Source: Minisyncoccota bacterium | GTDB lineage: Bacteria > Patescibacteriota > Minisyncoccia > Phycocordibacterales > UBA9973 | Direction of reading: 5' to 3' | Length of the DNA: 64,000 nucleotides | NCBI GenBank assembly: GCA_041667145.1 | Contig: JBAYFP010000001.1 | Location: 17,958-81,957, forward strand | In this document: one piece after another, positions 2,075-62,786 of the stretch | How the letters are laid out: every line of letters begins with the position of its first letter | Numbering within the stretch: position 1 is the first letter of the stretch | Notes under the pieces: model-generated | The model's input: only the letters and a program-made list of their open reading frames with translations | What the model was told of the DNA's origin: nothing | Database searches by the model: none | Made by a program: the position numbers and the translations under genes

Positions 2075-2206
2075 ACGAAAAAGAGCCCGTGTGATTATTT
2101 AATAATCCACAGAAATTATAAAAATATTTCTCTATAATAATAGTTAACTTAAAAGTTATTAACAACGAAAACTTGTTATTTTGCGTGATTTTGGTATATT
2201 GACAAT

Positions 2207-2806
2207 ATGGTCAAATTGGTCAATCGTACAGATTTTGTGTCTAAAATTAAGGCTAAAAAGATTAGTCTTTTTTCTGGACGTGAGATTCAAACATTATTTG
2301 GAGTTTCTAAGGTTGCTACCACTGGCATATTGCATCGTTATAGCAAGCAAGGTTTTATCATCCAAATTAAACGAGGTTTGTATGCGTTTCCTGATGCTTT
2401 ACCTCCTGAATTGTATCTTGCTAATAAACTCTATGATCCATCCTATATCTCAAGAGAGTTTGCTCTGTCATATCGTGGGATAATTCCTGAGATGGTATAT
2501 GAAATTACATCAGTGACAACTAAGGCTACACAAAAATTTAAAGCATTAGGTAAAATATATTCTTATCGTACGATTAAAAAATCTGCTTTTACTGGGTACA
2601 CAGTAGAGAAACAGCAAGGTTTTACTTTTCGCATAGCAGATGCAGAAAAAGCATTTGTTGATACTCTTTATTATCGCGTTATTTTTGGAAAAAAACCTAT
2701 AAGTCGTTTTAATAAAGAAAAAATAAATAAAAATAAAGCACTTAAATATGGTGAACTTTTTGATAATCCTAAACTTATTGGTATACTAAAGAGAACATTA
2801 TCATGA
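2207..2806 (+). CDS. AbiEi-family antitoxin / transcriptional regulator (type IV TA)
   Basis: N-terminal wHTH-like pattern ...LFGVSKVATTGILHRYSKQGFIIQIKRGLYAFPD typical of AbiEi; stop overlaps start of the next gene (ATGA). Confidence 0.55.
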   Translation: MVKLVNRTDFVSKIKAKKISLFSGREIQTLFGVSKVATTGILHRYSKQGFIIQIKRGLYAFPDALPPELYLANKLYDPSYISREFALSYRGIIPEMVYEITSVTTKATQKFKALGKIYSYRTIKKSAFTGYTVEKQQGFTFRIADAEKAFVDTLYYRVIFGKKPISRFNKEKINKNKALKYGELFDNPKLIGILKRTLS

Positions 2807-8261: not shown

Positions 8262-8432
8262 ATGGAATTAAGTGAGAAGGCAAAAAAAGAATTAAAACAA
8301 ATTCTTCAAAAGGAAATAGGTTTCGAGAGTGTCTCAATGCTCACTGATCAAGAGATTAATCATCTTGGTGTTTTTTTTCTTTCTATTTTTACTGAATCAC
8401 TCAAAATGAAAAATCTTAAAAAAAGCATATAA
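8262..8432 (+). CDS. small ORF (56 aa) immediately upstream of the serine recombinase
   Basis: ATG 8262 to TAA 8430-8432, MELSEKAKKELKQILQKEIGFESVSMLTDQEINHLGVFFLSIFTESLKMKNLKKSI; position suggests a helper/RDF-like protein but no motif. Confidence 0.2.
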   Translation: MELSEKAKKELKQILQKEIGFESVSMLTDQEINHLGVFFLSIFTESLKMKNLKKSI

Positions 8433-8440
8433 TATAAATT

Positions 8441-10111
8441 ATGGATAAAGATTTTTATAAAAACTTAAAAGTAGCAGGTTATTCTAGAAAATCATCTGAA
8501 GCAGAAGATAGACAAGTACTTTCTATAGGCTCACAAAAAGATGAGATAGAGAAAATGAAAGAATTAAATGGAATTACAGACACAATTTATTACGAAGACA
8601 GTAAATCAGCAAAAACTCCAGGAATAAGAGATCATTTTTCAAACATGATACAGGATATAAAAAATGGTAAAAGAAATGCAATTGCATGTTGGAAACCCGA
8701 CAGACTTGCAAGAAATATGGATGAGGGTGGAGAGATTATAGATTTATTACAAAGAGGAATTATCAAATCAATAATTACGCCTAGTAAAACCTATACACCT
8801 TCTGAACCAAGCTGGTCATTACTTCTTGAATTTGGTATGGCTAATCAGTTTAGTCGTGATTTATCTGTAAACGTAAAAAGAGGTCAAAATAAAAAAGCTA
8901 GAATGGGTATTCCACATGGATTAGCAAAAATAGGTTTTTTGAATGACAAAACTGAAGAAAAAGGAAATAGAAAATGGTTGATTGACGAAAAAAGATTTCG
9001 AATAATAAAAGAGGTATTTAAGGTATATCTAACTGGTAATTATTCTGGAGGTCAAATGTATGATCTAGCAATAAGAGCCGGACTTACTACACCAAAACAC
9101 AAACATAGTGGTGGTAATTCAATAACCCATTCTAGAATATATACAATATTAAAAGATACAATATATGCTGGTTTTTTTCATCAAGGAGGAGAAAGATACG
9201 AGTTAGATAAAACCTTACCTAGAATTATTACCGAAGATGAACACGAGAAAGTACTTAGAATGCTTTCTGGTAAAAATATACCAAAAACACAAACTCATCA
9301 ATCGATGTATGGCGGTTTTATAATATCACCTCAAAATAAATCCATAGGTACAGACTGTAAATTTCAAATTATATGTGAGTGTAAATACAAATTTTCTTAT
9401 ATTAATAAAACTCATTGTCCAAAATGTGGAAAAGAAATAATTTTAATAAAAAATCCAAAATATCTTGAGTATGAATATTATTACAATGTTGCCTTGAAAA
9501 AGAAAAAGTGGTCAATTAAAAATATTTCACAAAGTAAAGTTACTGATTTTTTATTAGAATTTGCGGATAAGTTTTCAATGTCCCCCGCTCTTGCAAATTG
9601 GTCCAGACGCCATATCCATGAAATTCATGATTCTGAAGTTGAATCAAAATTAGTGGTTGTAGAAAGTCAAAAGGAAAGGATTGAACAACTAGAAACAAAA
9701 AAGGAAAGATACCGTAATATGTTAGCTGATGAGATGATAGAAAGAGAAGAATACGAACATGACACAAAGAAATTTAGCGCCGAAATAGAAAAAATTAAAC
9801 AAAATTCACAAAACCAAGTAAATTGGCTACAAGAAGCTGAAAAAATAATTGACTTGGGGTTAGAAATGAAAAAAATAATCAAAAATGGAACCACAATGGC
9901 AAAAAGAGAGATACTTTCTAAACTCGGTTCGAACCTAATCTGGGACGAGGAAGAACTCAATATTATCAACAAAAAACCAATCCAAGTGCTGATCGATGGA
10001 CTTCTTTGGGCCAAACAAAAAAATCCTAAGTTCGAACCTAGTTCTATAGTTGATACATCAAGTCAGAATGATGTTTTTGAGGACATTCGTCCTATCTTGC
10101 TCCGGGGGTAG
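8441..10111 (+). CDS. large serine recombinase (resolvase/invertase catalytic domain + recombinase domain + zinc ribbon)
   Basis: N-terminal AGYSRKSSEAEDRQ..SIGSQ catalytic-serine motif, DRLAR, C-terminal CPKCGKE zinc ribbon; 556 aa; 3' end overlaps the tRNA 3' end. Confidence 0.85.
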   Translation: MDKDFYKNLKVAGYSRKSSEAEDRQVLSIGSQKDEIEKMKELNGITDTIYYEDSKSAKTPGIRDHFSNMIQDIKNGKRNAIACWKPDRLARNMDEGGEIIDLLQRGIIKSIITPSKTYTPSEPSWSLLLEFGMANQFSRDLSVNVKRGQNKKARMGIPHGLAKIGFLNDKTEEKGNRKWLIDEKRFRIIKEVFKVYLTGNYSGGQMYDLAIRAGLTTPKHKHSGGNSITHSRIYTILKDTIYAGFFHQGGERYELDKTLPRIITEDEHEKVLRMLSGKNIPKTQTHQSMYGGFIISPQNKSIGTDCKFQIICECKYKFSYINKTHCPKCGKEIILIKNPKYLEYEYYYNVALKKKKWSIKNISQSKVTDFLLEFADKFSMSPALANWSRRHIHEIHDSEVESKLVVVESQKERIEQLETKKERYRNMLADEMIEREEYEHDTKKFSAEIEKIKQNSQNQVNWLQEAEKIIDLGLEMKKIIKNGTTMAKREILSKLGSNLIWDEEELNIINKKPIQVLIDGLLWAKQKNPKFEPSSIVDTSSQNDVFEDIRPILLRG

Positions 10112-12135: not shown

Positions 12136-12621
12136 TTATAGGAAAAGTTTTTGAATTTTTTCCCAAGGGATAGCGACGAGCATCGTTCCCAAGACTACCA
12201 AAAAAAGACCGATACCTGTTTGCAAAGTGACGCCTTCTGTCAAAACGACGACTGCAAGTATTGCTGTAAAGACTATGGAAAGTTTATCAATGACTGTCAC
12301 AGCGACAGTCGGTCCTACTGATAATGCTTGATAAAAGAAAATCCAAGACAAAGCTCCACCGAGCCCAGAGAGAATCACAAAAATCCATTGTTTTGTAGAA
12401 AGTGATGATATTGCCGTTACTGTGAGTTTTCCAAATGATAATGCAGCGATAGACACAATGATGGCCATTATGATGCCTCGAATCGCTGTCAATAAATTTG
12501 CGTCAACCCCTTTAAGTCCTAATTTAGCAAAAATAGTTCCCATGCTTGCCATAATTGCACCCAACAATGCGTATATTATATACATGGGTTTTATTATATC
12601 AAACACATTGAAATAAAGCAT
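12136..12621 (-). CDS. EamA/DMT-superfamily small transporter (4-TM)
   Basis: hydrophobic 4-helix protein with EamA-like pattern; true start probably the internal Met at 12585. Confidence 0.5.
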   Translation of the reverse strand: MLYFNVFDIIKPMYIIYALLGAIMASMGTIFAKLGLKGVDANLLTAIRGIIMAIIVSIAALSFGKLTVTAISSLSTKQWIFVILSGLGGALSWIFFYQALSVGPTVAVTVIDKLSIVFTAILAVVVLTEGVTLQTGIGLFLVVLGTMLVAIPWEKIQKLFL

Positions 12622-12641
12622 TTTAGGTGTAATATATATGT

Positions 12642-14402
12642 ATGAAAAGCGAGACGAAGCAATGTCAAAACTGCAAACAAGACTTTACAATAGAACCAGA
12701 AGATTTTAATTTCTATGAGAAAATAAAGGTTCCTCCACCGACTTTTTGCCCACTTTGTAGGGCAGAAAGGCGATTTACTTTTAGGAATGAACGTAAGCTT
12801 TTTAAAGTAAAAGATTTTTATACTGATAAGGATATTTTTTCTTTATATCCAGCACGTGATAGTAAAAAAAATTTTACTCAAGAAGAGTGGTTTAGTGACA
12901 ATTGGGATGCATTAGAATATGGTCGTGATTATGATTTTTCTATACCATTTTTTAAACAATTTTTTGATTTAGAAAAAGTAGTTCCAGTTTGGCCGCTTCG
13001 AGTTGAATACGTCGTAAATAGTCCATATAGTGCTAATGCCTCAGCACTTAAAAATTGTTATTTATGTTTTAATTCAAGTCAATCAAAAGATTGTATGTAT
13101 AATAATGCAATAGACTTCAGTACAGACTGTATTGATAATTCCCATATTTTTCAATCAGAACGATGCTATGAATGTTTTTGGACGGATAATTCCTACCAAT
13201 GTTATTATTCTATAATTTGTAAAGAATCCCATAATCTTTATTTTTGTAAAAATTGTCTCGGATGCTCGGATTGTTTTGGATGTGTAGATTTAAGGAAATC
13301 CTCGTATTGTATTTTTAATAAGCAATATACAAAAGAGGATTATAAAAAGGAGATAGAGAATATGAAATTAAATACCATTTCTGGAGTTTCAAGAGCAAGA
13401 GAGAAGGCTCGAGTTTTTTGGTTGACTATGCCAACAAAATATCATCAAGGTTTAAAAAATTACGATTCGACTGGTTCTTATGTAACGAATTGCAAAAACG
13501 TAAAAGAAAGTTTTCTAATGAGAGAAGGAGAAAATATTAAATATTCTCAATATTTACAAGTTCCGAAAAATAAAGATTGTTATGATGCTACTGCATGGGG
13601 ACAGAATATGGAACTTAATTATGAAACTTGTCTTTGTGGGGAAAATTCTTTTAATATAAAATTTTGTTCAGATTGCTGGCCTAATTTTAAAGATTCTGAA
13701 TATTGTATAAGTATGTTTAGTTGCTCGGATTGTTTTGGATGTGTTGGTTTAAAGAAAAAACAATATTGTATTTTGAATAAACAATATACAAAAGAAGAAT
13801 ATAAAATTTTAGTAGAAAAAATTAAAAAACATATGGATGATATGCCTTTTGTTGACAGTAAAGAAAGGATATATAAATATGGAGAATTTTTTCCTATAGA
13901 ATTTTCTCCATTTGGTTATAACAATACAACAGCAATTCAGTATTTTAAAATGACAAAGGAAGAAGCAGAAAAAAAGGGTTATCCATGGAAAGAAATTGAA
14001 AGGGGTGAATATAATATCACTAAAAAAGTATCAGAACTTTCTGATTCTATTAACGATGTTGATGATTCTATCTTAAAAGAAGTAATAGAATGTGAAAACT
14101 GTAAGAGACCTTATCGTATTTTAAAGAATGAATTTATTTTTTATAAAAAAGAAAATTTACCTCTACCTGATTTGTGTGATGAATGTCGTTTTAGAAGAAG
14201 AATTAATGACAGGCTGGGGATTAAGTTGTATGAAAGGTCCTGTATGTGTAAAAGCGATTCTGATGAAACAGGTGTCTATAAAAATACTGTAGAACATATA
14301 CATGGTAATGAACCTTGTGGTGAAATATTTAAAACTGGATATAGCCCTGATTCTAAAGAGATAGTATACTGTGAGAAATGTTATCAGCAGGAGGTTTATT
14401 AA
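12642..14402 (+). CDS. cysteine-rich protein, paralog 1 (about 60 Cys; N- and C-terminal zinc-ribbon-like CxxC pairs; internal repeats)
   Basis: CQNCKQDF..CPLCR N-terminal ribbon; internal duplicated blocks ..CKNCLGCSDCFGCV.. and ..CSDCFGCVGLKKKQYCILNKQYTKEEY..; C-terminal CENCK..CDECR..CEKCY. Confidence 0.6.
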   Translation: MKSETKQCQNCKQDFTIEPEDFNFYEKIKVPPPTFCPLCRAERRFTFRNERKLFKVKDFYTDKDIFSLYPARDSKKNFTQEEWFSDNWDALEYGRDYDFSIPFFKQFFDLEKVVPVWPLRVEYVVNSPYSANASALKNCYLCFNSSQSKDCMYNNAIDFSTDCIDNSHIFQSERCYECFWTDNSYQCYYSIICKESHNLYFCKNCLGCSDCFGCVDLRKSSYCIFNKQYTKEDYKKEIENMKLNTISGVSRAREKARVFWLTMPTKYHQGLKNYDSTGSYVTNCKNVKESFLMREGENIKYSQYLQVPKNKDCYDATAWGQNMELNYETCLCGENSFNIKFCSDCWPNFKDSEYCISMFSCSDCFGCVGLKKKQYCILNKQYTKEEYKILVEKIKKHMDDMPFVDSKERIYKYGEFFPIEFSPFGYNNTTAIQYFKMTKEEAEKKGYPWKEIERGEYNITKKVSELSDSINDVDDSILKEVIECENCKRPYRILKNEFIFYKKENLPLPDLCDECRFRRRINDRLGIKLYERSCMCKSDSDETGVYKNTVEHIHGNEPCGEIFKTGYSPDSKEIVYCEKCYQQEVY

Positions 14403-23255: not shown

Positions 23256-23861
23256 TTATTCGACTTGTTTATAATTACCTGGCAGGATACCTATCTTGTT
23301 TAGTGGGAATAGACGTAAGAATACTTTTCCTATTAAGAGTTTCTTTGGTACTGCACCCCAATATCTTGAATCTGAACTAGCAGATCTGTTGTCTCCCATT
23401 ACAAAATATTCGTCAGATTTTAACACAAAATGAGTATCATTGTTTGAAGTGTTTTCTAAATATGATTGATCAAGGATTAGCCCGGAGGGATGATTTTTAT
23501 TTGTTATTGTCACAGTGTTTCCTTTTATGTCTACTGTTTCATTTGGAAGCCCGATTATTCTTTTTATAAAAAACTTTGTTGTATCATTCGGATATCTAAA
23601 AACTATTACGTCGTCTCTTTGTGGATCATTAAATCTATAAGATATTTCATCTATTATTAAATATTGCCCATCTTGAAATGTAGGTATCATTGAAGAACCA
23701 GAAACGATAAATGGTTGGGCGATGTATACACGTATAGGTATAACAATAGCGACTGCTATTATTGTAAAGCGTACAAGTTCCCAAAATGATTTCTTGTCAA
23801 ACTTTTTTTCATCTTGACTCACGGAGATAGGTGTTATATTTTCTTGTTCTTTTGATTCCAT
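23256..23861 (-). CDS. lepB: signal peptidase I
   Basis: N-terminal TM, SGSSM (Ser), GDNRSASSDSR box. Confidence 0.8.
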   Translation of the reverse strand: MESKEQENITPISVSQDEKKFDKKSFWELVRFTIIAVAIVIPIRVYIAQPFIVSGSSMIPTFQDGQYLIIDEISYRFNDPQRDDVIVFRYPNDTTKFFIKRIIGLPNETVDIKGNTVTITNKNHPSGLILDQSYLENTSNNDTHFVLKSDEYFVMGDNRSASSDSRYWGAVPKKLLIGKVFLRLFPLNKIGILPGNYKQVE

Positions 23862-23991
23862 GTTGCTATTTTAGCACAAAAAAGTCTTGACACAATGGGG
23901 GAATATGTTTTGGAATAAATTATTCCCCTACACCAGGTGAAGGGGAATCACCACCCCCAACCCCCTCCTCCACAAGGAGGGGATGAAGTTA

Positions 23992-24000
23992 TGTTATAAT
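23992..24000 (+). promoter_or_regulatory. extended -10 TGTTATAAT 6 nt upstream of the pth ATG (leaderless-type)
   Basis: TGTTATAAT-agaatt-ATG; identical architecture at gap and rpiB. Confidence 0.5.
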
Positions 24001-24006
24001 AGAATT

Positions 24007-24537
24007 ATGAAATTAATCGTTGGCTTGGGCAATCCAGGCGAAGAATATAAAAATACCAGACACAATACTGGGTATATTATGCTTGATATGGTTGAGAAAA
24101 AAATAGATTTGAAAGATAAAGTTAGATTTGTTTATCCAGATAAATTTATGAATAATTCTGGTAAAGTAGTCGGACCCTTGATAAAATCAAAAAAAGATTT
24201 GAAAGATCTTGTAGTGATTTATGATGACATTGATTTGCCAATAGGGAAAATGAAGATATCTTTCAATAGATCCTCGGGTGGACATAATGGTTTAGGTTCT
24301 ATAATAAAAGCATTAAAGTCTGAAGAATTTGTACGTATTCGTATTGGTATATCTAAAGCGACTCCTTCAGGAAAAATAAGAAAACCAAAAGGGGAGAAAG
24401 AAGTGCTAAAATTTTTACTTGGTGAATACAAAAAGAATGAGTTAGATGAACTTAAAAAACTTTCAAAAAAAGTGATTTTAGCTATTGAAACTATTTTTAC
24501 TGAAAGTAAAGATAAAGCGATGAGTTTGTATAATTAA
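24007..24537 (+). CDS. pth: peptidyl-tRNA hydrolase
   Basis: MKLIVGLGNPG..YKNTRHNTG motif; start moved to the internal Met. Confidence 0.85.
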   Translation: MKLIVGLGNPGEEYKNTRHNTGYIMLDMVEKKIDLKDKVRFVYPDKFMNNSGKVVGPLIKSKKDLKDLVVIYDDIDLPIGKMKISFNRSSGGHNGLGSIIKALKSEEFVRIRIGISKATPSGKIRKPKGEKEVLKFLLGEYKKNELDELKKLSKKVILAIETIFTESKDKAMSLYN

Positions 24538-27500: not shown

Positions 27501-27746
27501 TCGAGAACCTGCTGTCATATATGCCTCGACTCCAATGATGGGTTTGATGCCTTCTTTTTTTGCTAATTTATAAAATTCTATAGCGCCATACATATTGCCA
27601 TGGTCAGTGACAGCTATAGCGGGCATGTTGTTTTTTTTAGCGAGGGCGACTAAATCTTTAAGCTTAGAAAGCCCATCCAAGAGAGAATAATGGCTGTGTG
27701 TATGTAGGTGTATGAAGCTTGTTTCTGATTTTTCCATTTTTAACAT
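24534..27746 (-). CDS. dnaE: DNA polymerase III alpha subunit
   Basis: PHP domain HLHTHSHYSLLDG, polymerase core, 1070 aa. Confidence 0.9.
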   Translation of the reverse strand: MLKMEKSETSFIHLHTHSHYSLLDGLSKLKDLVALAKKNNMPAIAVTDHGNMYGAIEFYKLAKKEGIKPIIGVEAYMTAGSRKDRTTESDGGKRYYHLTLLAKNLQGYKNLIRLVTISNLEGYYYKPRMDKEILEQYHEGVIALSGCLGGELSQSIARNDMIKAEKIISEYQKIFGKENYFIEIQCHPSVENDKHVRDTLVKLAKKHNIPVVATQDSHYPCSEDHEAHHTLLQINTQGDNKETSKFEFSDDDFSLIDTKEALKIFKDIPEAVTNTQKIADMCDLELELGSWVFPDFKIEAGMTYDEKLRELTYAGFENIGIKQTPEIIERVEYELKIIFKKGYSPYFLVVDDLLDYAKDNGILTTIRGSVAGSMVTYLLGITNVNPIEYKLPFERFLNPFRPSPPDIDMDYADNRRDEMIEYAKKKYGEDKVAQIGTFGTMMARGAVRDVARALGYPYSIGDRISKMIPMGSQGMPMTIDHAMEMVPELKGAYKDEKDTKKIIDLAKKLEGCVRHISVHAAGVVIAPKPLYEYVPTQFDPKGGKIITQYDMYSVEDAGLLKFDFLGIRNLAILGDAISLVKRFYNIDIDIERIPLNDKKTFSLLASGQTEGLFQLNGAGMTRYLKELKPTSIHDINAMVALYRPGPMESIPEYIKRKHNRNLVKYLDPRMKKFLGESYGLIVYQDDLLFCAIELAGYNWEEADKFRKAVGKKIPKEMAAQREKFTKGIISNGQTPEFAEKLWKLFEPFQAYGFNKAHAASYGRVAYQTAYMKANYPVEYMTAILTAESGDVEKISEIINECKNMNIPVLPPNINENYGGFTVIRDEEKNISEKIRFGFYTIKNLGTDISDAIIAERKLNGKFKSITDFLKRIKHKNLNKKSMEALIKSGSMDEWADRGVLLANLEDMLLFNKESFNQNENQTSLFGGLPQSDISTFKLKEAPPATQADKLLWEKELLGLYISGHPLDRVREKLESRDINIKKIKEKLGNGIPVTIAGIIETARVVITKNNDRMAFLKISDFTGSIEAVAFPSIFKESVDILVPEKCIALSGKVSLRNGEKSIIIEAVKAI

Positions 27747-27773
27747 AATAGCATAAAATTAGATTATTAAAAT

Positions 27774-27887: not shown

Positions 27888-27894
27888 TTTTGTA

Positions 27895-27903
27895 TGTTAT
27901 AAT
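27895..27903 (+). promoter_or_regulatory. extended -10 TGTTATAAT 6 nt upstream of the gap ATG
   Basis: TGTTATAAT-attctt-ATG. Confidence 0.5.
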
Positions 27904-27909
27904 ATTCTT

Positions 27910-28935
27910 ATGAAGAAAATTAAAGTAGCCATTAATGGCTTTGGGAGAATAGGTAGAGCATTTTTAAAAATAGCTTGGGACAGACCAGAGATTGAAATAG
28001 TTGCAGTAAATGATTTAGGTTCGATAGAAAGTCTCGCTTATTTACTTCGTCATGATACCGTTTACAGAAATTGGAATCACAAGGTAGAAATTTCTGGTAC
28101 TGATTTATTAATAGATGGAAAAGTTATTAAATTTATTTCAGAAAAAGATACTACAAAACTCCCATGGAAAGAATTAGGCATCGATGTAGTTGTAGAATCA
28201 ACAGGATTATTTACTTCTTATGACAAGGCTGAATTTCATATCAAACAAGGCGCAAAGAAAGTTGTCATTTCTGCTCCATCTAAGGGAGCAGAAGGAAATG
28301 TAAAAGGGGAAACCATATTGCTTGGAATCAATGAAGATAAATTTGGTACTTGTGATATTACTTCCAATGCTTCTTGTACGACAAACGCTGCCTCACCACT
28401 TATTTCGATATTACACGAAGCTTTAGGTATAGAAAAAGCAATTTTAAATACTGTTCATGGGTATACAGCTTCTCAAGCACTTGTCGATGGTCCAAGTAGA
28501 AAAGATTTAAGAGAAGGACGTGCAGCAGCACAGAATATTGTACCGAGTTCTACTGGGGCAGCCATAGCTGTGACAGAAGCATTTCCAGAATTAAAAGGTT
28601 TATTTGATGGTATTTCTATTCGTGTGCCTGTGCCTGCTGGATCAATCGTAGATATCACTTTTATTTCTAAGAAAAATACAACTAAAGAAGAGGTGAATAG
28701 TATTTTAGAAAAAGCTTCGAAAGATAAAAAATGGGAAAAGATTTTTTCTGTCACTAAAGAGCCGTTAGTTTCTTCAGATATTTTAGGGGAATCACATGCG
28801 TGTATCGCAGACCTTGAAATGACTCGCGTCGTAGGGGGAAATCTCGTAAAAGTTCTCGGCTGGTACGATAACGAAATGGGGTATACGTATACCCTAGTTG
28901 ATCATGTAATTAAAACAGGGGGAACGATTAAATAA
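27910..28935 (+). CDS. gap: glyceraldehyde-3-phosphate dehydrogenase (type I)
   Basis: VAINGFGRIGR, SNASCTTN motifs; start moved to MKKIKVAING. Confidence 0.9.
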   Translation: MKKIKVAINGFGRIGRAFLKIAWDRPEIEIVAVNDLGSIESLAYLLRHDTVYRNWNHKVEISGTDLLIDGKVIKFISEKDTTKLPWKELGIDVVVESTGLFTSYDKAEFHIKQGAKKVVISAPSKGAEGNVKGETILLGINEDKFGTCDITSNASCTTNAASPLISILHEALGIEKAILNTVHGYTASQALVDGPSRKDLREGRAAAQNIVPSSTGAAIAVTEAFPELKGLFDGISIRVPVPAGSIVDITFISKKNTTKEEVNSILEKASKDKKWEKIFSVTKEPLVSSDILGESHACIADLEMTRVVGGNLVKVLGWYDNEMGYTYTLVDHVIKTGGTIK

Positions 28936-30753: not shown

Positions 30754-30762
30754 TGTTATAAT
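30754..30762 (+). promoter_or_regulatory. extended -10 TGTTATAAT 6 nt upstream of the rpiB ATG
   Basis: TGTTATAAT-aatact-ATG. Confidence 0.5.
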
Positions 30763-30768
30763 AATACT

Positions 30769-31251
30769 ATGAAAATTTTTATTGGTACAGATCACGCAGG
30801 GTATGTATTAAAAGAAAAACTTGTCTCTTTTTTAAAAGCTCAAGGTCATGAAGTGATAGATGAAGGTGCTTATGTTTATGATGAGGATGATGATTACCCC
30901 GATTTTGTTTCCAAAGTCGCCCGTGAAGTTTCGAAGGATCCAAACTCAAATAGAGTGAGGGGTATTATTTTGGGTGGTACAGGACAAGGGGAAGCTATCG
31001 TGGCAAACAGATTCCCTCATGTTAGAGCCATAGTTTATTATGGCAGAGCAAAGGCTGTAGTAGAAAACGAATCAGGAATTCTTGCTAGATCTAGAAATCA
31101 CAATGATGCTAACATTCTTTCTCTTGGTGCTAGATATTTTACAGAAGAAGATATGGTAGAGATAGTTAATTATTGGCTTAATGCTCCTTTCAGTGAAGGC
31201 GAGAGGCATATTCGTCGTTTAGGAAAAATAGATGCAATAAAAGTTGATTAA
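30769..31251 (+). CDS. rpiB: ribose-5-phosphate isomerase B
   Basis: MKIFIGTDHAGY, RpiB/LacAB family length and motifs. Confidence 0.8.
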   Translation: MKIFIGTDHAGYVLKEKLVSFLKAQGHEVIDEGAYVYDEDDDYPDFVSKVAREVSKDPNSNRVRGIILGGTGQGEAIVANRFPHVRAIVYYGRAKAVVENESGILARSRNHNDANILSLGARYFTEEDMVEIVNYWLNAPFSEGERHIRRLGKIDAIKVD

Positions 31252-36001: not shown

Positions 36002-36048
36002 AGATAAATTTAGTTTCTTTTTTGTCTTTATTTTGTTAACATAAATTT

Positions 36049-37035
36049 ATGCTAAGTATTGGAATCGTGGGGTTGCCTAATGTCGGGAAATCGACGCTTT
36101 TTAATGCGCTTACAAAGAAAAGCGTGCCAGCGGAGAATTATCCTTTTTGTACTATAGATCCATCTGTGGGCATTGTTCCTGTGCCAGATGAAAGAGTACA
36201 GAAACTATCTGAATTTTCTAAATCTAAAAAAACTATCCCCGCAGTGATCGAGTTTGTGGATATCGCAGGGCTTGTGGCTGGAGCTTCCAAGGGTGAAGGT
36301 TTGGGAAATAAATTTTTAACAAATATTCGTGAGGTAGATGCTATAGCACATGTCGTGCGTGTTTTTCAGGATAATTCTGTGATTCACGTTGCTAATAAAG
36401 TTGACCCAATGCAAGATGTAGGAGTTATTAATTTAGAATTAGCTTTGGCTGACTTTGAAACAGTACAAAAAAGAATTTCTAGTATTCAAAAAGATGTCAA
36501 AAAAAATGATAAAGATGCGCTAAGTGAAGAAATTGTTTTAAAAAAAGTAGAGAAAGTGTTGGAAGAAGGGAAAATGGCGACTGACGCAAAATTGAGCGAA
36601 GATGAAAAGTTTAAAATAAAATCATTAAATTTGCTTACATTAAAACCAATGCTTTATGTTTTGAATACTTCAGAAGCGAGTGAGAACGTTGATATAAAAT
36701 TATCCGGGATGTCTGTAAAAGTCGATCCAGTTTTTGGACAAGGTTTTGATGAATTAATTAAGAAAAGTTATGAACTTTTAGGTCTTGAGACGTTTTTAAC
36801 AACAGGAGAAGACGAGACACGTGCTTGGACTATAAAGATAGGATCTACTGCACCTCTCGCAGGGATGGCCATTCATACAGATTTTAAAGAGAAATTTATT
36901 CGTGCAGAGGTGATAAGATGGGATAAATTATTAGAAGCTGGTTCACATTCTAAGGCTAAAGAAAAGGGATGGGTGAGAACAGAGGGTAAAGACTATATTG
37001 TTCAGGATGGAGATGTTATAGAATTCTTGATTTAA
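36049..37035 (+). CDS. ychF: ribosome-binding ATPase YchF (Obg-like)
   Basis: GIVGLPNVGKSTLFNALT P-loop; C-terminal TGS-like EGKDYIVQDGDVIEF. Confidence 0.8.
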   Translation: MLSIGIVGLPNVGKSTLFNALTKKSVPAENYPFCTIDPSVGIVPVPDERVQKLSEFSKSKKTIPAVIEFVDIAGLVAGASKGEGLGNKFLTNIREVDAIAHVVRVFQDNSVIHVANKVDPMQDVGVINLELALADFETVQKRISSIQKDVKKNDKDALSEEIVLKKVEKVLEEGKMATDAKLSEDEKFKIKSLNLLTLKPMLYVLNTSEASENVDIKLSGMSVKVDPVFGQGFDELIKKSYELLGLETFLTTGEDETRAWTIKIGSTAPLAGMAIHTDFKEKFIRAEVIRWDKLLEAGSHSKAKEKGWVRTEGKDYIVQDGDVIEFLI

Positions 37036-37043
37036 AAAATAAA

Positions 37044-38000
37044 ATGAAAAATGAAATTAAAATTTTTTGTGTAAAAGATTGGAAAGACTATGAGCTTTTA
37101 GATACTGGTGAAGGGGAAAAATTGGAAAGATTTGGTCCGTATACTTTTGTGCGTCCATATGAGGATGCTGTTTGGCTGAAAACTTTAGAAAACAAAGAAT
37201 GGGCGAAAGCTGATGGTAAATTTTGGAGTTCAAAAGTTGGTGCAAAGCCTGGATGGAAGATGAATAATAAAATTGAGAAGAAATGGGAGATGGAATATAA
37301 AGGGGTTAAATTTTTTGCTTCTCCTACATCTTTTAGACATTTAAGTTTCTTTCCTGAACAGGCGTATCATTGGGATTCTATATATGAAAAGATTACTTCA
37401 CAGAATGAGACTTTTTCTCGGGTCCTCGAGGCAGAGCCCCAGACCAGCTCAAAAAAGTCTCATTCTGTTTCGTTAGATTTAAAAAAAATAAAATTTCTGA
37501 ATCTTTTTGGTTACACTGGGGTCGCTAGTTTGTTTGCTTTGAAGGCTGGGGCAGAAGTGACGCATGTCGATGCTTCAAAATCTTCTATTGAACAGGCAAA
37601 AGAAAATCAGAAAATAAATATTGAATTGGCTGAAGCGCCTATGCGGGCTATTTGTGATGATGTACTTAAGTTTTTAGAAAGGGAAGTAAAGAGAGGAAAT
37701 AAATATGATGCTGTTGTTATGGATCCACCTAAATTTGGTCGCGGGCCTAAAGGAGAAATTTGGGAAATTGAAAAAGATTTACCGAAACTTCTTTCGTTGG
37801 TTCGTAAAATTTTGAGTGATAAACCACTTTTTGTTATTTTGAATTCTTATGCCATAGATTCATCCTCGCTTTCTTTAGGTTATGCCCTAGAGGATGCCAT
37901 GAAGGTTTTAGATGGCGAAGTTTCTGTTGGTGAGCTTTGCCTCTTAGAAAAATCTAATAATAGAACTATTTCTCTTTCAAATACTGCTATTTGGTGCTAA
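37044..38000 (+). CDS. class I SAM-dependent methyltransferase (RlmI/YccW-like)
   Basis: FGYTGVASL (motif I), VVMDPPKF (DPPxF motif IV). Confidence 0.5.
   Translation: MKNEIKIFCVKDWKDYELLDTGEGEKLERFGPYTFVRPYEDAVWLKTLENKEWAKADGKFWSSKVGAKPGWKMNNKIEKKWEMEYKGVKFFASPTSFRHLSFFPEQAYHWDSIYEKITSQNETFSRVLEAEPQTSSKKSHSVSLDLKKIKFLNLFGYTGVASLFALKAGAEVTHVDASKSSIEQAKENQKINIELAEAPMRAICDDVLKFLEREVKRGNKYDAVVMDPPKFGRGPKGEIWEIEKDLPKLLSLVRKILSDKPLFVILNSYAIDSSSLSLGYALEDAMKVLDGEVSVGELCLLEKSNNRTISLSNTAIWC
37428..37459. repeat. GC-rich element (family E: GGTCCTCGAG..CCCAGACCA) inside the MTase CDS
   Basis: CGGGTCCTCGAGGCAGAGCCCCAGACCAGCTC; cf. 40438-40467 and 60754-60798. Confidence 0.45.
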
Positions 38001-38011
38001 AATAAAAGACT

Positions 38012-38587
38012 ATGGAAACAAAACCAAAGGTTTTAAAGTGGGCGCTTATTATAGGTATTGTAGTGGTGTTAAATTTATTTTTTAATTATACTATTTCTCT
38101 TTTTTATAAAGAGCCAGATTATAATACTTTTTTCCCACAGCAACAAGTCGTGGAGCCGATAACTAATAAAGATGCATGTCTCAAAGTCGGTGGGCAGTGG
38201 ATTGAAAGCCCTGTATATAAAGATGGGAAGACTGTTCCAGTTCCAGCAGGTTCTCCACAAGTGATGAGTTATTGTAATCCTGATTTTACCAAACAGCAGG
38301 AATTTAGTGATGCGCAAAAGGTTTACCAAAGAAACATTTTTATAATACTTGTCGTACTTGGTGTCCTATCTCTCGTTTTAGGTGTGTTTCTTGCCAATGA
38401 AATTATTACCTTAGGTCTTTCATGGGGTGGAGTTCTTTCACTTGTCATTGCTTCAATGCGATATTGGTCAACTGCAGACAATCTTATAAAAGTTCTGATA
38501 TTAGGATTTGCATTAGCTGCACTTGTTTGGTTGGCTGTCAGAAAGTTTGGGAAAAATATTAGTTCTGATGAAAAATTACAACCATAA
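38012..38587 (+). CDS. hypothetical membrane protein
   Basis: N- and C-terminal TM helices. Confidence 0.4.
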   Translation: METKPKVLKWALIIGIVVVLNLFFNYTISLFYKEPDYNTFFPQQQVVEPITNKDACLKVGGQWIESPVYKDGKTVPVPAGSPQVMSYCNPDFTKQQEFSDAQKVYQRNIFIILVVLGVLSLVLGVFLANEIITLGLSWGGVLSLVIASMRYWSTADNLIKVLILGFALAALVWLAVRKFGKNISSDEKLQP

Positions 38588-40946: not shown

Positions 40947-41043
40947 CTAATATATTGTTAAATATATTAGGTTTGTAGTATGATATGGGTATCAATAAAG
41001 TCGTTGAAACTTTTATTAGTATTTTAATGTTAGTATAAAAAAT

Positions 41044-43122
41044 ATGTTATCAAATATTTTAGATAGAATCTCTTTTTGGTCACTTTTTGTGGTCGTTGTC
41101 CTGTTGCCAGTTTTTTTCTTACCATTTACTCAGATCCCCGTCGAGACATCGAAGGGTCTTATTTTAGTTATAGGTTTGGCAGTGTCTGTCATTTTCTGGA
41201 TAGCTGCTAGATTTTCAGATGGAAGGGTAGTTATCCCGAAGTCTCGCCTTTTACTTGCTGGGGTTGCTGTTTTATTAGTTACGCTTATTTCTGCTTTATT
41301 TTCTTCTACTTCGCAATTGTCTCTTTTTGGTATAATGCTTGATCTTGGGACTTTCTATTTCATATTGGCAGCCTTTCTTTTAATGTTCTTTGCATCTATG
41401 ATCTTGAAAGATACCAAAGATGCCAAGAAAGTTTTCTGGGGAGTGATAATTTCTTCAGCAGTTTTATTTGTATTTCAGATTTTTCACTTGTTTTTCCCTC
41501 AGTTTTTGTCTCTAGGAGTTTTAGGAAGTAAGACGGAGACCATCTTGGGTTCTTGGAATGCGTTTGGTTTGTTTGCTGGTTTCTCGGCTGTCATGTCTCT
41601 TTTTATTGTTGAATTTTTTTCAATTTCAAAAAATATTAAATGGTTCTTGGGTGTTTTGATTGCAATTTCTGTCCTATTGTCTGCTGCAGTCAACTTCCCA
41701 CTAGTTTGGGAGCTTCTCGGAGTTTTTGCTTTGATTATCTTTGTTTATAAGATTTCATATTCATTTGGTGAGAAACAAGAAGAAGGAAAGAAAAGAAATT
41801 TCCCAGCTTTTTCGTTTGCAGTTGTTATGATTTCCTTATTGTTCTTTATATCAGGTCAATTTATAGGAGGACTTTTACCAAATGCTCTTAATTTATCAAA
41901 CATTGAGATCAGGCCTTCTTTTAGTGCCACTATGTCAGTGACGAAAGATGCGATTATGAAAAATCCAGTTTTGGGAGTAGGTCCAAATAAATTTTCTGAA
42001 GTATGGGCAATGTATAAACCAGCTGTTATTAATTCTACTCAATTTTGGGATTCATCTTTTAATTTTGGTTCTGGCTTGTTGCCGACTTTTGCTTCTACGA
42101 CTGGTATTTTAGGTATATTAGCTTGGTTAGCATTCTTTGTTTTATTTATACTTGCAGGTGTCAAATCTCTTTTTTCTAGTATTAAGAATAATATGAGTTG
42201 GGAGGTGGTAGCATTCTTCGTAGCTTCATTATACTTGTTTGTTTCCTCTTTCTTTTATTCTACTGGATCAGTTTTGTTTTTATTGGCTTTTGCTTTCTTG
42301 GGAGCATTTATAGGGATATCTTCAAATAATTCTAACAAAGAAATTTCATTTTCATTTTTAGATGATCCTAGGAAAAGTTTTTTCTCGATATTATTTCTTG
42401 TGGTGTTGATGATCGTTTCTGCGGCTGCTGGATTTAAATATGTAGAGAGATTAGCTTCCGTATCATATTTAGGGGAGACACTTTCCACTTCGACAATTTC
42501 TGTCGCGGAAGATTCAATCACTAAAGCTATTTCTCTTAACCAAAATGATTTGTATTTGCGTACTTATGCTCAAGTTTATATTGCAAAAATTAATTCTTTA
42601 GTTGCTAAGGGTTCTTCTTTGACTGATGAAGAAAAAGCTAGTTTACAGACAAGTTTTGATCAAGCATTAAACGGTGCAAATCTAGCGATAGTTTATGATA
42701 AGACAAATTATTTAAATTATATTTCTTTAGGATCTGTATATAATACAGTCGGTGGACTCGGCGTGCAGGATGCTTACACAAAAGCTGTCGAAGCATATAA
42801 AACAGCTTCGATTCTTAATCCATTGAATCCGGGAATAAAACTTACAATAGCACGTATATTATTTACAGATGGAAAAATAAAAGAAGCTAGAGATTTTGCA
42901 AAAGAAGCTCTCTCCTTAAAACCCGATTATTTGGAAGCATTGATTACTATGTCTCAAATAGAAAAGAAAGATGGTAATAATACGATCGCTATTACTTATG
43001 CTGAGACAGCACTCTCTCTTGCCCCTACTAATAAGGATTTGATTCAATATGTTGCTTCATTAAAAAAGGGAGATACTACAGTTACACCACCAGCTACAAG
43101 TAATAATAAAAAAACACAATAA
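41044..43122 (+). CDS. polytopic membrane protein, O-antigen ligase (Wzy_C)-like with C-terminal TPR repeats
   Basis: more than 10 TM helices then TPR-like repeats (..AYTKAVEAYKTASILNP..). Confidence 0.4.
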   Translation: MLSNILDRISFWSLFVVVVLLPVFFLPFTQIPVETSKGLILVIGLAVSVIFWIAARFSDGRVVIPKSRLLLAGVAVLLVTLISALFSSTSQLSLFGIMLDLGTFYFILAAFLLMFFASMILKDTKDAKKVFWGVIISSAVLFVFQIFHLFFPQFLSLGVLGSKTETILGSWNAFGLFAGFSAVMSLFIVEFFSISKNIKWFLGVLIAISVLLSAAVNFPLVWELLGVFALIIFVYKISYSFGEKQEEGKKRNFPAFSFAVVMISLLFFISGQFIGGLLPNALNLSNIEIRPSFSATMSVTKDAIMKNPVLGVGPNKFSEVWAMYKPAVINSTQFWDSSFNFGSGLLPTFASTTGILGILAWLAFFVLFILAGVKSLFSSIKNNMSWEVVAFFVASLYLFVSSFFYSTGSVLFLLAFAFLGAFIGISSNNSNKEISFSFLDDPRKSFFSILFLVVLMIVSAAAGFKYVERLASVSYLGETLSTSTISVAEDSITKAISLNQNDLYLRTYAQVYIAKINSLVAKGSSLTDEEKASLQTSFDQALNGANLAIVYDKTNYLNYISLGSVYNTVGGLGVQDAYTKAVEAYKTASILNPLNPGIKLTIARILFTDGKIKEARDFAKEALSLKPDYLEALITMSQIEKKDGNNTIAITYAETALSLAPTNKDLIQYVASLKKGDTTVTPPATSNNKKTQ

Positions 43123-44829: not shown

Positions 44830-44880
44830 TTTTGGAATCAAAAGCTTTTCTGCTAATATGAATTTATGGATTTAAAACAC

Positions 44881-47429: not shown

Positions 47430-47450
47430 GTAATGTGATATAATAAAGTA

Positions 47451-48404
47451 ATGAAAATAGCATTTTTTTATAAGTCTGAGGAAGTTCGAGAACTTTTAGA
47501 AGATTCTTTTCCTGGCAATGAAGTGTCTTTTTTTAACGAAAAATTAAGTGAGAGTAATGTTGATAAAATAAAAGAATTTGAGATTATTTCAGTATTTATA
47601 GATTCAGAAGTTAATAAGAATATTATTGACAATTTGCCAAACCTAAAATATATTACCACTCGATCGACAGGTTATGATCATATCGATTGTAAGTATGCAG
47701 AGAGTAAGGGTATAAAAGTTTCAAATGTTCCAGTTTATGGTTCAAGTACAGTAGCTGAATTTGCTTTTGCTCTTTTGTTAAATCTTTCTAGAAAAATTAG
47801 TGAAGCAGGTAAACAATTAAAAGAAGGTGGTGATTTTGAAACATCTGAGAAATGTGAAGGTTTTGATCTTGATGGAAAAACTATAGGAGTTATTGGTACA
47901 GGTAAAATTGGTAAAAATATAATTCGTATCGCTAAAGCTTTCAATATGAAAGTATTAGCTTATGATTTATATCCAGATGTTAATTTCGCAAGAGAAAATG
48001 GATTTGAATATAAAGATTTTGAAGAGATTCTTTCTGTGTCAGATGTAGTTACTTTGCATGCACCTTATACAAAAGAAAATCATCATCTTATAAACAAAGA
48101 AAATATTTTAAAAATGAAAAAAGGCGTTTACATTATAAACACTGCTCGTGGTGAACTTGTAGATAATGATGCATTACTTTTAGGTATCAATGAGGGCATT
48201 GTCGGGGGTGTCGGATTAGATGTTTTGGAAGGGGAACGTAACATTAAAAAGGGTGACAAAATTTCTCTTTTAGATAAACCTAATGTAATTATTACTCCTC
48301 ATGTAGCTTTTTATTCTAAAGAAGCGATGATGAGAATTATGCAAACGACTGTGGAAAACATAAAAGGATTCATATCTGGAAATTTACAAAATCTGGTTAG
48401 ATAA
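47451..48404 (+). CDS. D-isomer-specific 2-hydroxyacid dehydrogenase (glycerate/hydroxypyruvate reductase-like)
   Basis: GKTIGVIGTGKIGKNI Rossmann motif, catalytic R/E/H pattern. Confidence 0.75.
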   Translation: MKIAFFYKSEEVRELLEDSFPGNEVSFFNEKLSESNVDKIKEFEIISVFIDSEVNKNIIDNLPNLKYITTRSTGYDHIDCKYAESKGIKVSNVPVYGSSTVAEFAFALLLNLSRKISEAGKQLKEGGDFETSEKCEGFDLDGKTIGVIGTGKIGKNIIRIAKAFNMKVLAYDLYPDVNFARENGFEYKDFEEILSVSDVVTLHAPYTKENHHLINKENILKMKKGVYIINTARGELVDNDALLLGINEGIVGGVGLDVLEGERNIKKGDKISLLDKPNVIITPHVAFYSKEAMMRIMQTTVENIKGFISGNLQNLVR

Positions 48405-56106: not shown

Positions 56107-56115
56107 TGCTATAAT
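56107..56115 (+). promoter_or_regulatory. extended -10 TGCTATAAT 8 nt upstream of the grx ATG
   Basis: TTGACA just upstream but too close for a -35. Confidence 0.4.
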
Positions 56116-56123
56116 ATAAATAT

Positions 56124-56357
56124 ATGAAAAATATAACAATATATTCGACACCGTCTTGTCACTTTTGCCACATGGCAAAAGATTTTTTTAAGGCGAATAA
56201 CGTAGCTTACACAGAATATGATGTAGCTAGCAACTTAGAAAAAAGAAAAGAAATGGTAGATAAAAGCGGGCAAATGGGTGTGCCTGTGATCATTATAGAT
56301 AATGATATCATCGTAGGTTTCGATAAACCTCAAATATCTAAATTATTAGGACTTTAA
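56124..56357 (+). CDS. glutaredoxin-like protein (NrdH/Grx, CxxC)
   Basis: TIYSTPSCHFCHMAK thioredoxin-fold CxxC, 77 aa. Confidence 0.7.
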   Translation: MKNITIYSTPSCHFCHMAKDFFKANNVAYTEYDVASNLEKRKEMVDKSGQMGVPVIIIDNDIIVGFDKPQISKLLGL

Positions 56358-56437: not shown

Positions 56438-56522
56438 TAACTTTAGGAACTCTTATAATTTAACACAAAAAAGCTAATTTTAAAAATTGGCTTTTTTGGG
56501 ATGTGTATGATAAAATACCAAA

Positions 56523-56783
56523 ATGGATCCAGAATCTAAGCAATTGTTACAAAACACATTAGCACTTGCTGAAGAAAACAATAAAATGCTTCATAAGATT
56601 AGAGGCGCCCAGAGGAGGGAAGTCGTTTGGCGAACATTAAAGATTCTTGTGATAATAGCGATAGCTTTCGGATCTTTTTATTTCGTAGAACCATATCTAA
56701 ACAAAGTGATGGATATGTATAATTCAGTTGTTGGTGTACAACAGAAGTTAAATAGTGGTTCTGATTTATTGAAAAAATTATAG
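56523..56783 (+). CDS. hypothetical small membrane protein
   Basis: 86 aa, central TM. Confidence 0.3.
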   Translation: MDPESKQLLQNTLALAEENNKMLHKIRGAQRREVVWRTLKILVIIAIAFGSFYFVEPYLNKVMDMYNSVVGVQQKLNSGSDLLKKL

Positions 56784-60249: not shown

Positions 60250-60281
60250 TACTCGATAATAACATAAAATATTGACGTTTT

Positions 60282-61427: not shown

Positions 61428-61513
61428 GTGCGTTTATACTAGCAAATATAGGTATATTTGCAAAATCATTAGATGATATATGTCTAAATTAAAATTTATG
61501 TTATTATGGTTTC

Positions 61514-62786
61514 ATGAAATCACCAGAAGGCCCTAGAAAAGTAAAGAATAAAAATGAAGATGTTATTCCAGAATATGGGTTAGAAGATGGCATAAAAAAA
61601 TTAGTTAGTCTTATCCAAGAGAAAATTTCTAAAGGCATTTTGCCTGTTATTGTCAGAGTGGCTGGAGGTTCTGCTTGTGGCAAGACGACAGAAGTATCAG
61701 AGAAAATTAAAAGAATTTTTAATGAAGATGAAGTGCTTATTCTTTCCATGGATAATCATTATTTTGATAAACATCATTGGGTAAAAATGGCTAAACAAGG
61801 AATTTCTAAACCTAATGTAGATGAACCGGCTTCAATTAATTTTGCGTCAGTAGAAAAAAATGAAGAACAGTTGATAAGTGGGAAAACAATTGAAGAGCCA
61901 TTATATAGTCACAGAATGCAAGAAGCTACTAAAACAGTTACAGAACAACCGCATAATATAATTGTTGAAGAAGGTATTTTTAATCTTCTTCTTGAAAAAA
62001 AATCTGAGAGACATATCAATGTATTTGTTGATACTGATACTTATGGGAGAATGATTCGACGAGTTTATAGAGATGTAAAATATAGGATGAGACCAAATGA
62101 GACTGCAGCTGATATGCTTAAATATGTTCTTGAAACAGTTGAGCCTATGTATGAGAAGCATGTAAAGCCCACTATGGAAAATGCTGATATGATTATTAAT
62201 AATCCATTTGATCCAGAGTCTGAAACAGAAAAATTTGAGTTGAAAGAAGCGCAATTAAATTTTAAAACCGAATTAACTTCAGAAAAATTACTTGCCTTAG
62301 GTGCTAAAGTGATTGATCAAGCAGAGCAGGTAGATTATTACTATAATCCCAAAAACTTAGATGAAACTGGGGAAACTTTGAGAATTCGTCATGAATTTAG
62401 GATAGGCGAGGAAGAAAATAATGAGAAAGAAACTATTTTTTTTTGGTTACAAAGGACCTGAGAAGGGTGTTGAATCAGATTTTAGAGTACATCCAAAATT
62501 AGAATTTGAAATAGATAAAGATGCTGAAAAAAAATTTATAGAAACATTTGGTGATCATACAAAAAGAATAGAAAAAGATAGGATTTTGTACGAACTTGAT
62601 GGGGTAATGTTTTTTCTTGATGATGTTGTAAAAATTGAAAAAGGTGATGTACAGACTTATTTAGAAAAGTTTATAGAAATTAGATCAACTGATAAAGAAA
62701 TTAACGATGAAAAGATAAAATCTTTGGTTTCAAAACTTGGTCTTAAAATGGAAGATGGAATAAAAACTCCTTATTCTAAGATGTAA
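61514..62786 (+). pseudogene. P-loop kinase (uridine kinase/PRK family)-CYTH domain fusion, frameshifted at a T9 tract
   Basis: Walker A AGGSACGKTT; CYTH (ELKEAQLNFKTEL..ETLRIRHE; YKGPEKG..); frames 61514-62461 and 62421-62786 rejoin if T9 (62436-62444) is read as T8. Confidence 0.6.

Follow-up and report, generated by a model that had tools for sequence, protein, structure and literature searches.

The stretch of DNA analyzed here, referred to as the window, is 64,000 nucleotides long and comes from a Minisyncoccota bacterium (contig JBAYFP010000001.1, positions 17,958 to 81,957). Three of its genes, pth, gap, and rpiB, each carry a box of the TGnTAnnnT class exactly six nucleotides ahead of the start codon, and boxes of this class stand six to eight nucleotides from the start of further genes in the window and in related genomes. 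These boxes are best read as extended -10 promoters that yield leaderless messenger RNAs (mRNAs), a reading held with good confidence on the basis of sequence features. It is likewise probable that the mRNAs of pth, gap, and rpiB are leaderless, with the major 5' end no more than 3 nucleotides from the AUG. We infer that, in this Paceibacteria genome and in its relatives, operon-first genes usually have a leaderless start; these genomes appear to make essentially no use of the Shine-Dalgarno (SD) sequence.

Boxes and gene starts of pth, gap, and rpiB

The pth site (23992..24009, + strand) is composed of the extended -10 box TGTTATAAT, the spacer AGAATT, and ATG 24007, which opens the gene 24007-24537. 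The gap site (27895..27912, +) has the same box, the spacer ATTCTT, and ATG 27910 (gene 27910-28935). The rpiB site (30754..30771, +) has the spacer AATACT and ATG 30769 (gene 30769-31251). The TGTTATAAT copies themselves occupy 23992-24000, 27895-27903, and 30754-30762, and all three sites read TGtTATAAT. A sequence-only reading of the window had placed this box exactly 6 nucleotides ahead of the ATG of these genes and had found no SD motif there; the sequence confirms both statements at all three genes. None of the spacers holds an SD, and all are too short for one at a working distance. A GGAGG-like sequence 5-10 nucleotides upstream of the start codon is found at none of the three. A fourth copy of TGTTATAAT begins at 5020 and has no nearby ATG, the next open reading frame (ORF) start being at 5161. 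The identical 9-mer at pth, gap, and rpiB is simply the consensus of the box described below.

The program-made ORF track starts these genes at ATG 23983 (pth), TTG 27877 (gap), and TTG 30733 (rpiB), all upstream of the boxes, which adds 8, 11, and 12 codons to the N-terminus, respectively. The sequence-only reading had called these starts too long, and Pfam profile alignments and orthologues bear this out. Position 1 of the profile falls on residue 3 of the short Pth protein (Pept_tRNA_hydro), residue 4 of Gap (Gp_dh_N), and residue 3 of RpiB (LacAB_rpiB); the short proteins are predicted to begin MKLIVG, MKKIKV, and MKIFIG, respectively. In most gap orthologues, the stretch from the conserved ATG back to the upstream stop offers no further in-frame start. 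Two of four pth orthologues (loci L009 and L015) likewise lack an upstream in-frame start, which also counts against the longer Pth. The longer starts are therefore considered wrong. The AGGAGG before ATG 23983 was considered as an SD of the longer Pth and was rejected; it ends 2 nucleotides from that ATG and lies within a hairpin.

Frequency of the box in the window

The general box that was searched, of the TGnTAnnnT class, is denoted TGNTANNNT, and N6, N7, and N8 give the number of nucleotides between box and start codon. TGNTANNNT-N6-ATG occurs 14 times in the window against 3.76 +/- 2.0 expected, and TGNTANNNT-N8-ATG occurs 12 times against 3.4 expected; none of 100 shuffles reaches either count. 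The N7 arrangement is not enriched in the window (4 against 3.6 expected), yet three of its four sites open real genes. Without use of any annotation, an ATG that begins an ORF of 70 or more amino acids lies at N6, N7, and N8 of 10, 3, and 4 of the 209 TGNTANNNT sites, respectively, compared with about 0.7 per other offset.

A curated table was made of the upstream regions of 58 window genes, with offsets 12-41 of the same regions as background. TGNTANNNT is present at N6-8 of 16 of the 58 genes, where 0.9 are expected (Poisson P = 4e-15). The 16 include pth, gap, rpiB, lepB, dnaE, ychF, a ValS-like synthetase, tsaD, a uridine-kinase-family gene, and a 2-hydroxyacid dehydrogenase, as well as genes for glutaredoxin, an EamA transporter, an AbiEi-like protein, and a TPR membrane protein. 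Further window genes have a good -10 box that lacks the TG, such as the recombinase (TATAAT at N7) and gene 12642 (TAATAT at N6). Only 4 of the 58 have an SD-like motif upstream. The pattern described by the sequence-only reading thus stands, while its extent was understated; it is a property of the genome and the clade and is not confined to three genes.

Conservation in related genomes

Relatives were collected by a GAPDH protein scan with one genome per species. The scan gave 80 loci, of which L001-L073 were used as 73 related loci, with a total length of 1.18 Mb and a GC content of 31-57%. These are metagenome-assembled genomes (MAGs) labelled Paceibacterota, Paceibacteria, Parcubacteria, Nomura-, Kaiser-, Adler-, Yonath-, Zambryski-, or Azambacteria. 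The best GAPDH match to the window has 89% identity. Several third-party assemblies labelled "Saccharibacteria" are read as Paceibacteria relatives, their GAPDH (up to 82%) being as close as that of named Nomurabacteria. On these matches, the window is assigned to a candidate phyla radiation/Patescibacteria genome of class Paceibacteria.

The 73 loci contain 1,240 ORFs of at least 100 amino acids. TANNNT stands at N6 of 236 of these against a background of about 50, and TGNTANNNT stands at N6, N7, N8, and N9 of 91, 36, 38, and 23, against a background of about 4. The census of box-to-start distances that had been proposed with the sequence-only reading therefore finds a peak at N6-8 both in the window and in the related loci. 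The N6 peak is common to low-, mid-, and high-GC loci. Relatives with a GC content of at least 48% have 27 sites at N6 and no more than 3 at most other offsets. TGNTANNNT at N6-8 is found in 33% of divergent first genes of the 73 loci versus 4% of tightly packed genes. The seven non-CPR (candidate phyla radiation) loci from the same scan, a small sample, show no N6-8 peak.

Orthologues of individual genes follow the same arrangement. TANNNT stands at N6, N7, or N8 of 34, 9, and 12 gap orthologues, a total of 55 of 68 (81%), 25 of them with TGn; an SD 4-mer is found in none of the 68. The box is also present at gap in genomes of 50-57% GC, for example gtgatagaatcgcgcaATG in L053, which is not expected from composition. 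At pth, three of the four orthologues carry either TGTTATgAT or TGTTATTAT at N6. Among rpiB orthologues, the box is found at stand-alone copies of the gene and is missing from those placed directly after gap. The window dnaE and the dnaE gene of L007 share an identical TGCTATTAT-N7-ATG. As an internal control, the gene downstream of rpiB was compared: none of its 59 orthologues has TGNTANNNT at N6-8.

Start codons with a box at N6, N7, and N8 are ATG in 111, 60, and 43 cases, GTG in 3, 4, and 3, and TTG in 0, 8, and 2. This ATG preference lends slight support to a leaderless signature. SD 4-mers are present in 6-9% of the ORFs of every class in the 73 loci, which is the chance level, with no positional peak worth naming. 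This SD census used the first 25 codons of each ORF together with the neighbor-class census; a motif-centered version was swamped by the codon periodicity of long ORFs. The 3' end of the 16S ribosomal RNA, which would give an anti-SD readout, was sought in the window and in all 80 loci and is present in none.

Promoter-like features of the box

The TG at positions -15/-14 is found in 16 of 24 near boxes (N6-8) of the window versus 9 of the 73 that lie farther from the start (P = 7.5e-7). The TG of an extended -10 is contacted by the sigma factor and is not known to have a role in translation. A logo of 323 N6 sites has the hexamer consensus TATAAT, with T at 50% and G at 49% at -15/-14, compared with 28% and 22% in the background. 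The base at -1 of the ATG is a pyrimidine in 78% of these sites. T is weakly enriched at the would-be -35 position (17-bp spacer).

A box at N6-8 makes the A of the ATG the seventh or eighth base after the -10. The preferred distance from -10 to transcription start site (TSS) is 7 bp across 49 bacteria (PMC12641261). The same work re-analyzed E. coli saturation mutagenesis, where a pyrimidine-purine-pyrimidine (YRY) triplet centered 7 bp past the -10 coincides with the TSS in 93% of cases (PMC12641261). The corresponding Y(-1)R(+1)Y(+2), centered 7 bp after the -10, reads T-A-T at pth, gap, and rpiB.

The position of the gene also matters. The window has the box at 11 of 18 divergent genes versus 1 of 19 genes that lie no more than 15 nucleotides from a same-strand neighbor (P = 4e-4). 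An automatic ORF call gives the box in 64% of divergent and 6% of tightly packed genes. A classical -35/-10 consensus scan of the window is not enriched (26 against 33 expected) and does not list the pth, gap, and rpiB sites. Since these sites lack a -35, that scan misses them and is uninformative for this class of promoter; together with the weak T enrichment, it indicates that the -35 is weak or dispensable. The TG, the pyrimidine at -1, the restriction to first genes, and the poor -35 point to a promoter and not to a translation signal.

Proposed mechanism and points against it

The following sequence of events is proposed. RNA polymerase with the housekeeping sigma factor would use an extended -10 of the sigma-70 type (TGnTAnnnT) with a weak or absent -35. 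Transcription would start 7 (or 8) bp downstream, which is the A of the AUG at N6 sites and a position 1-2 nucleotides earlier at N7 and N8 sites. As a result, pth, gap, rpiB, and roughly 20 further genes of the window would be transcribed into mRNAs with neither a 5' untranslated region (UTR) nor an SD. The ribosome, with initiator tRNA and initiation factor 2 (IF2), would bind the 5'-terminal AUG directly and need no SD pairing. Direct recognition of a 5'-terminal AUG on leaderless mRNA is established in E. coli, mycobacteria, and Deinococcus. The leaderless interpretation offered by the sequence-only reading is supported in that the spacing, the YRY triplet, the TG, the restriction to first genes, the conservation, the preference for ATG, and the lack of an SD all agree with what it predicts at the sequence level.

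Several points weigh against this reading. The N7 and N8 sites may give leaders of 1-2 nucleotides rather than a strictly terminal AUG. The 7-bp rule was derived from other bacteria (PMC12641261). In N. lyticus, the only CPR species with TSS data (based on RNA-seq), the distance from -10 to TSS is unusually variable. In about one-fifth of the gap orthologues, the best -10 box lies 20-30 nucleotides upstream and is followed by an AT-rich leader that lacks an SD, so a leadered, SD-free mode is also present in the clade. TANNNT by itself stands at N6-8 of 12-20% of internal genes, which is attributed to the AT-rich DNA. A promoter-like site at 27731-27759 (+) could read through a hairpin element into gap, and read-through could also come from that element itself, the approximately 125-nucleotide element described below. 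Finally, the starts 12585 (EamA) and 27737 (dnaE) in the curated table were picked partly with the box in view; both agree with Pfam, that of dnaE also with its L007 orthologue, and the annotation-free counts are unaffected.

Alternative explanations

A different reading of the same boxes is that the TA-rich sequence is an SD-independent, A/U-rich landing site for ribosomes on leadered mRNA transcribed from a promoter further upstream, as in the Bacteroidota (group B). The chance-level SD in all gene classes requires that some SD-free mechanism serve the internal genes, whose upstream regions are A/T-rich and carry TANNNT at N6-8 in up to 20%, and the gap orthologues with a distant box and an AT-rich leader would suit such a mechanism. 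The group B motif, however, precedes internal genes too (PMC6028130), whereas the box studied here is largely a feature of first genes (33% versus 4% in the related loci) and is absent from all orthologues of the internal control gene. Moreover, the spacing forms a sharp peak at N6 and is not spread, and the TG and the pyrimidine at -1 are features of transcription. A ribosome landing site is accordingly considered improbable.

TATAAT-like words may also arise near an ATG by chance in a genome of 33% GC. The TGTTATAAT box by itself would allow this, as its 4 copies are not significantly more than the 2.05 expected (16 of 100 shuffles reach 4), and the -35/-10 scan showed no enrichment. Chance is nevertheless refuted by the N6 and N8 arrangements, which exceed every shuffle, by the Poisson probability for the 58 genes, and by the persistence of the peak in the relatives of at least 48% GC. 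A shared operator that co-regulates pth, gap, and rpiB as a regulon could account for three of the four exact window copies preceding these genes at equal spacing. It is very unlikely, because the 9-mer equals the consensus of the 323 sites and 13 further genes of unrelated functions carry variants (TGCTAAAAT, TGTTATTAT, TGATATAAT, and others) at the same spacing. The orthologues also have different variants, and the three window sites share no similarity beyond the box. The extended -10 promoter with a leaderless mRNA remains the preferred explanation.

Relation to known systems

The accepted mark of leaderless transcription is a Pribnow box that stands 6-8 nucleotides ahead of the start codon of first genes, a signature designated group C in GeneMarkS-2 (PMC6028130). 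Group C was described for Actinobacteria (90%) and Deinococcus-Thermus (97%), and the main text of that paper does not mention the CPR (PMC6028130). The Paceibacteria sites have the box at N6-8, no SD and no room for one, confinement to first genes, and a preference for AUG. They are alike to those of Actinobacteria and Deinococcus-Thermus (M. tuberculosis, D. deserti) in having TANNNT 6-8 nucleotides upstream of first genes with no SD and, by prediction for the Paceibacteria, no 5' UTR. In those phyla, too, leaderless genes are identified by computation through this peak in spacing (PMC6028130). The remaining genes of those phyla use an SD (PMC6028130), whereas SD motifs are at chance in every class of Paceibacteria genes. 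Paceibacteria also differ in that their promoters are mostly TGn-extended and their genomes are AT-rich and very small.

Haloarchaea and other archaea (group D) would resemble the Paceibacteria in that most first genes are leaderless, with 60-80% of operons in many archaea (PMC6028130). The archaeal promoter is a TATA box approximately 26 nucleotides upstream and is used by a different RNA polymerase and different initiation factors; that of Paceibacteria is a bacterial -10 box. The extended -10 sigma-70 promoters of E. coli and the Firmicutes are alike in the TG one base upstream of the hexamer and in the poor -35. They are a class of promoter, not a mode of translation, and normally precede a 5' UTR with an SD. 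The Bacteroidota are alike in their very low use of the SD, while their motif lies within a real 5' UTR, internal genes included (PMC6028130), and the TGnTAnnnT of Paceibacteria is restricted to first genes.

In a comparison of ribosomes across the CPR, only 48% of Parcubacteria had a detected 16S anti-SD motif, and bS21 was often absent (PMC9297842). That study remarked that SD helices are unlikely to form in these lineages, never mentioned leaderless mRNAs, and left open how translation starts (PMC9297842). A literature search for leaderless together with CPR, Patescibacteria, Saccharibacteria, or Parcubacteria found no report, with a coverage that is incomplete and does not prove novelty. 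The leaderless mechanism is known; we could not find a publication that describes it as dominant in Paceibacteria, with SD use at chance level. PGAP and GeneMarkS-2 may already model leaderless Paceibacteria starts silently.

Other sites in the window

Several boxes belong to divergent gene pairs. The partner of pth is lepB (signal peptidase; 23859..23876, -), with TGCTAAAAT at N6 of ATG 23861. The stretch 23880-23990 (+) between the lepB and pth promoters is G+C-rich in an otherwise AT-rich genome and contains two to three hairpins, including CCCCTCCTccacaAGGAGGGG (fold z -1.7). The partner of gap is dnaE (27735..27753, -), with TGCTATTAT at N7 of ATG 27737. The tsaD gene (61425..61444, -) has TGCTAGTAT at N8 of ATG 61427, and its divergent partner, the PRK/uridine-kinase-family gene (61499..61516, +), has TGTTATTAT at N6 of ATG 61514. 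The EamA-family gene (12583..12601, -) has TGATATAAT at N7 of ATG 12585, and position 3 of the EamA profile falls on residue 2. Back-to-back with this promoter is that of gene 12642-14402 (12630..12644, +), with TAATAT at N6 of ATG 12642. The gaps of the last two pairs are tiny, 86 nucleotides for tsaD and the kinase gene and 56 nucleotides (12586-12641) for EamA and gene 12642, which is hardly more than two back-to-back -10 boxes.

Further sites at N6 are those of the AbiEi-like gene (TGGTATATT, ATG 2207; 2192..2209, +), ychF (TGTTAACAT, ATG 36049; 36034..36051, +), the 2-hydroxyacid dehydrogenase (TGATATAAT, ATG 47451; 47436..47453, +), a small gene of 86 amino acids (56523-56783; TGATAAAAT; 56508..56525, +), and the class I tRNA synthetase (ValS-like; TGTTATTAT, ATG 60249; 60247..60264, -). 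The TPR membrane protein gene has TGTTAGTAT at N7 (ATG 41044; 41028..41046, +). Gene 38012-38587 has TGCTAAAAT at N8 of ATG 38012 (37995..38014, +), where the box and the upstream gene's stop codon overlap.

The sequence-only reading had listed three genes with similar boxes, and its description is correct for two of them. The glutaredoxin gene (grx; 56107..56126, +) has TGCTATAAT at 56107, N8 from ATG 56124, and the serine recombinase (8428..8443, +) has TATAAT at 8428, N7 from ATG 8441, with no TG. The third, an EEP gene, was taken to be the last gene, which is cut by the window end (63735..63754, +). Its box, TGATATAAT, is similar as described, while the spacing to ATG 63752 is 8 nucleotides and not 9. 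Pfam gave no match for the cut-off fragment of this gene.

An ORF of 21 codons has TGCTAATAT at N6 of ATG 44866 (44851..44868, +), and its TGA overlaps the lepA ATG (44928). The ORF holds a hairpin, and the stop/start overlap is the ATGA at 44928-44931, where the arrangement that begins at 44851 (+) ends. By its arrangement, this short ORF may feed the SD-less lepA through translational coupling.

The dapF gene (MIKFYKYHGAGNDF; 30675-30700, -) breaks the pattern, with a TATAAT just 3 nucleotides ahead of the ATG. A better promoter candidate is TTGATG-17-TATAGT, which ends 15 nucleotides upstream and would give a leader of about 8 nucleotides that lacks an SD. An identical 22-mer, TTAAAATTTTAGTACTGGGATG, is found at 19993-20016 and 48460-48483 (+), each copy ending in a start codon. 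The two genes concerned are unrelated, the second being 48481. These genes have TAAAAT at N12, which would leave a leader of 5-6 nucleotides, ACTGGG. One of the two, with the N-terminus MKINLQGKNLEITPAINDYV, looks like a candidate ribosome hibernation factor by its N-terminal sequence.

Strong SDs had been assigned in the sequence-only reading to pepE and to the 28-nucleotide repeats, and both are present. The pepE-like gene has AGGAG 6 nucleotides ahead of ATG 1354, and the repeats carry GGGAGGA-N7-ATG. The repeat, GCTCCAGACTTGGGAGGATGTTCGAATG, has three copies (449-476, 1520-1547, and 2037-2064, +) with unrelated flanks, located around the pepE-like and AbiEi-like genes. With spacings of 1071 and 517 nucleotides, it is not CRISPR-like. 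Its segment GTTCGAAT has what we take to be a resemblance to a tRNA T-arm, and the repeats could be remnants of attachment sites.

Structured RNAs and a structured element in the window

A structured element of about 125 nucleotides (27768-27892, +; fold z = -8.1) lies between the divergent dnaE and gap promoters. Copies are found in the window at 11851-11968 and in two relatives (L007:576-660, L007:4930-5015, L019:6028-6112, and L019:20614-20698), and all strong copies are on the same strand as gap. The copies share a conserved core, while the outer stem and inner hairpin vary yet stay paired. Nineteen of 27 pairs are changed on both sides, a number matched by none of 500 shuffles, in an alignment that was fitted to the model and thus favors structure. 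A comparison with Rfam gave no family match, only generic hairpins below threshold. A role as the gap 5' leader was rejected and the element is not considered part of the gap promoter, because it is multi-copy and is sited elsewhere in relatives. It may be a small RNA, terminator-like, or similar to a repetitive extragenic palindrome (REP) or miniature inverted-repeat transposable element (MITE).

A tRNA gene (10098-10416, -) has its anticodon loop split by a group I intron of about 250 nucleotides, with Rfam Intron_gpI at 10145-10456. ARAGORN misses this tRNA in place and finds a clean 73-nucleotide tRNA after removal of the intron. Where exactly the intron is spliced decides between Thr, Asn, and His as its predicted identity; in its acceptor stem and its discriminator G, the tRNA presumably looks Asn-like. 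The LOOT RNA model (RF03000) matches 7766-7897 (-) along its entire length and scores 77 bits, where the gathering score is 46.4.

Implications

A broader view is that the Paceibacteria have largely abandoned SD initiation, with operon-first genes leaderless from extended -10 promoters and internal genes started SD-free. This is offered tentatively, as a possibility with somewhat less than even support. Routes for internal genes would include coupling and unstructured A/U-rich junctions. The leaderless share under this view is about half of the unambiguous first genes in the clade and about three-quarters of those in the window. If true, it would supply, on the functional side, the counterpart that was missing for the 16S anti-SD and bS21 losses reported in Parcubacteria.

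Gene callers that are guided by an SD or take the longest ORF will over-extend the N-termini of CPR genes. If the -10 box were taken as the start signal, many gene annotations across thousands of Parcubacteria MAGs would be corrected. TGnTATAAT-N6-ATG is also a ready-made expression signal for the emerging genetic tools of Patescibacteria.

Leaderless divergent pairs need only about 55-145 nucleotides between genes, which fits genome streamlining. Leaderless first genes together with chance-level SD use give a concrete and testable answer to how translation starts in Parcubacteria that lack the anti-SD. If the broader view is true, the Paceibacteria would be the bacterial lineage closest to the haloarchaeal pattern.

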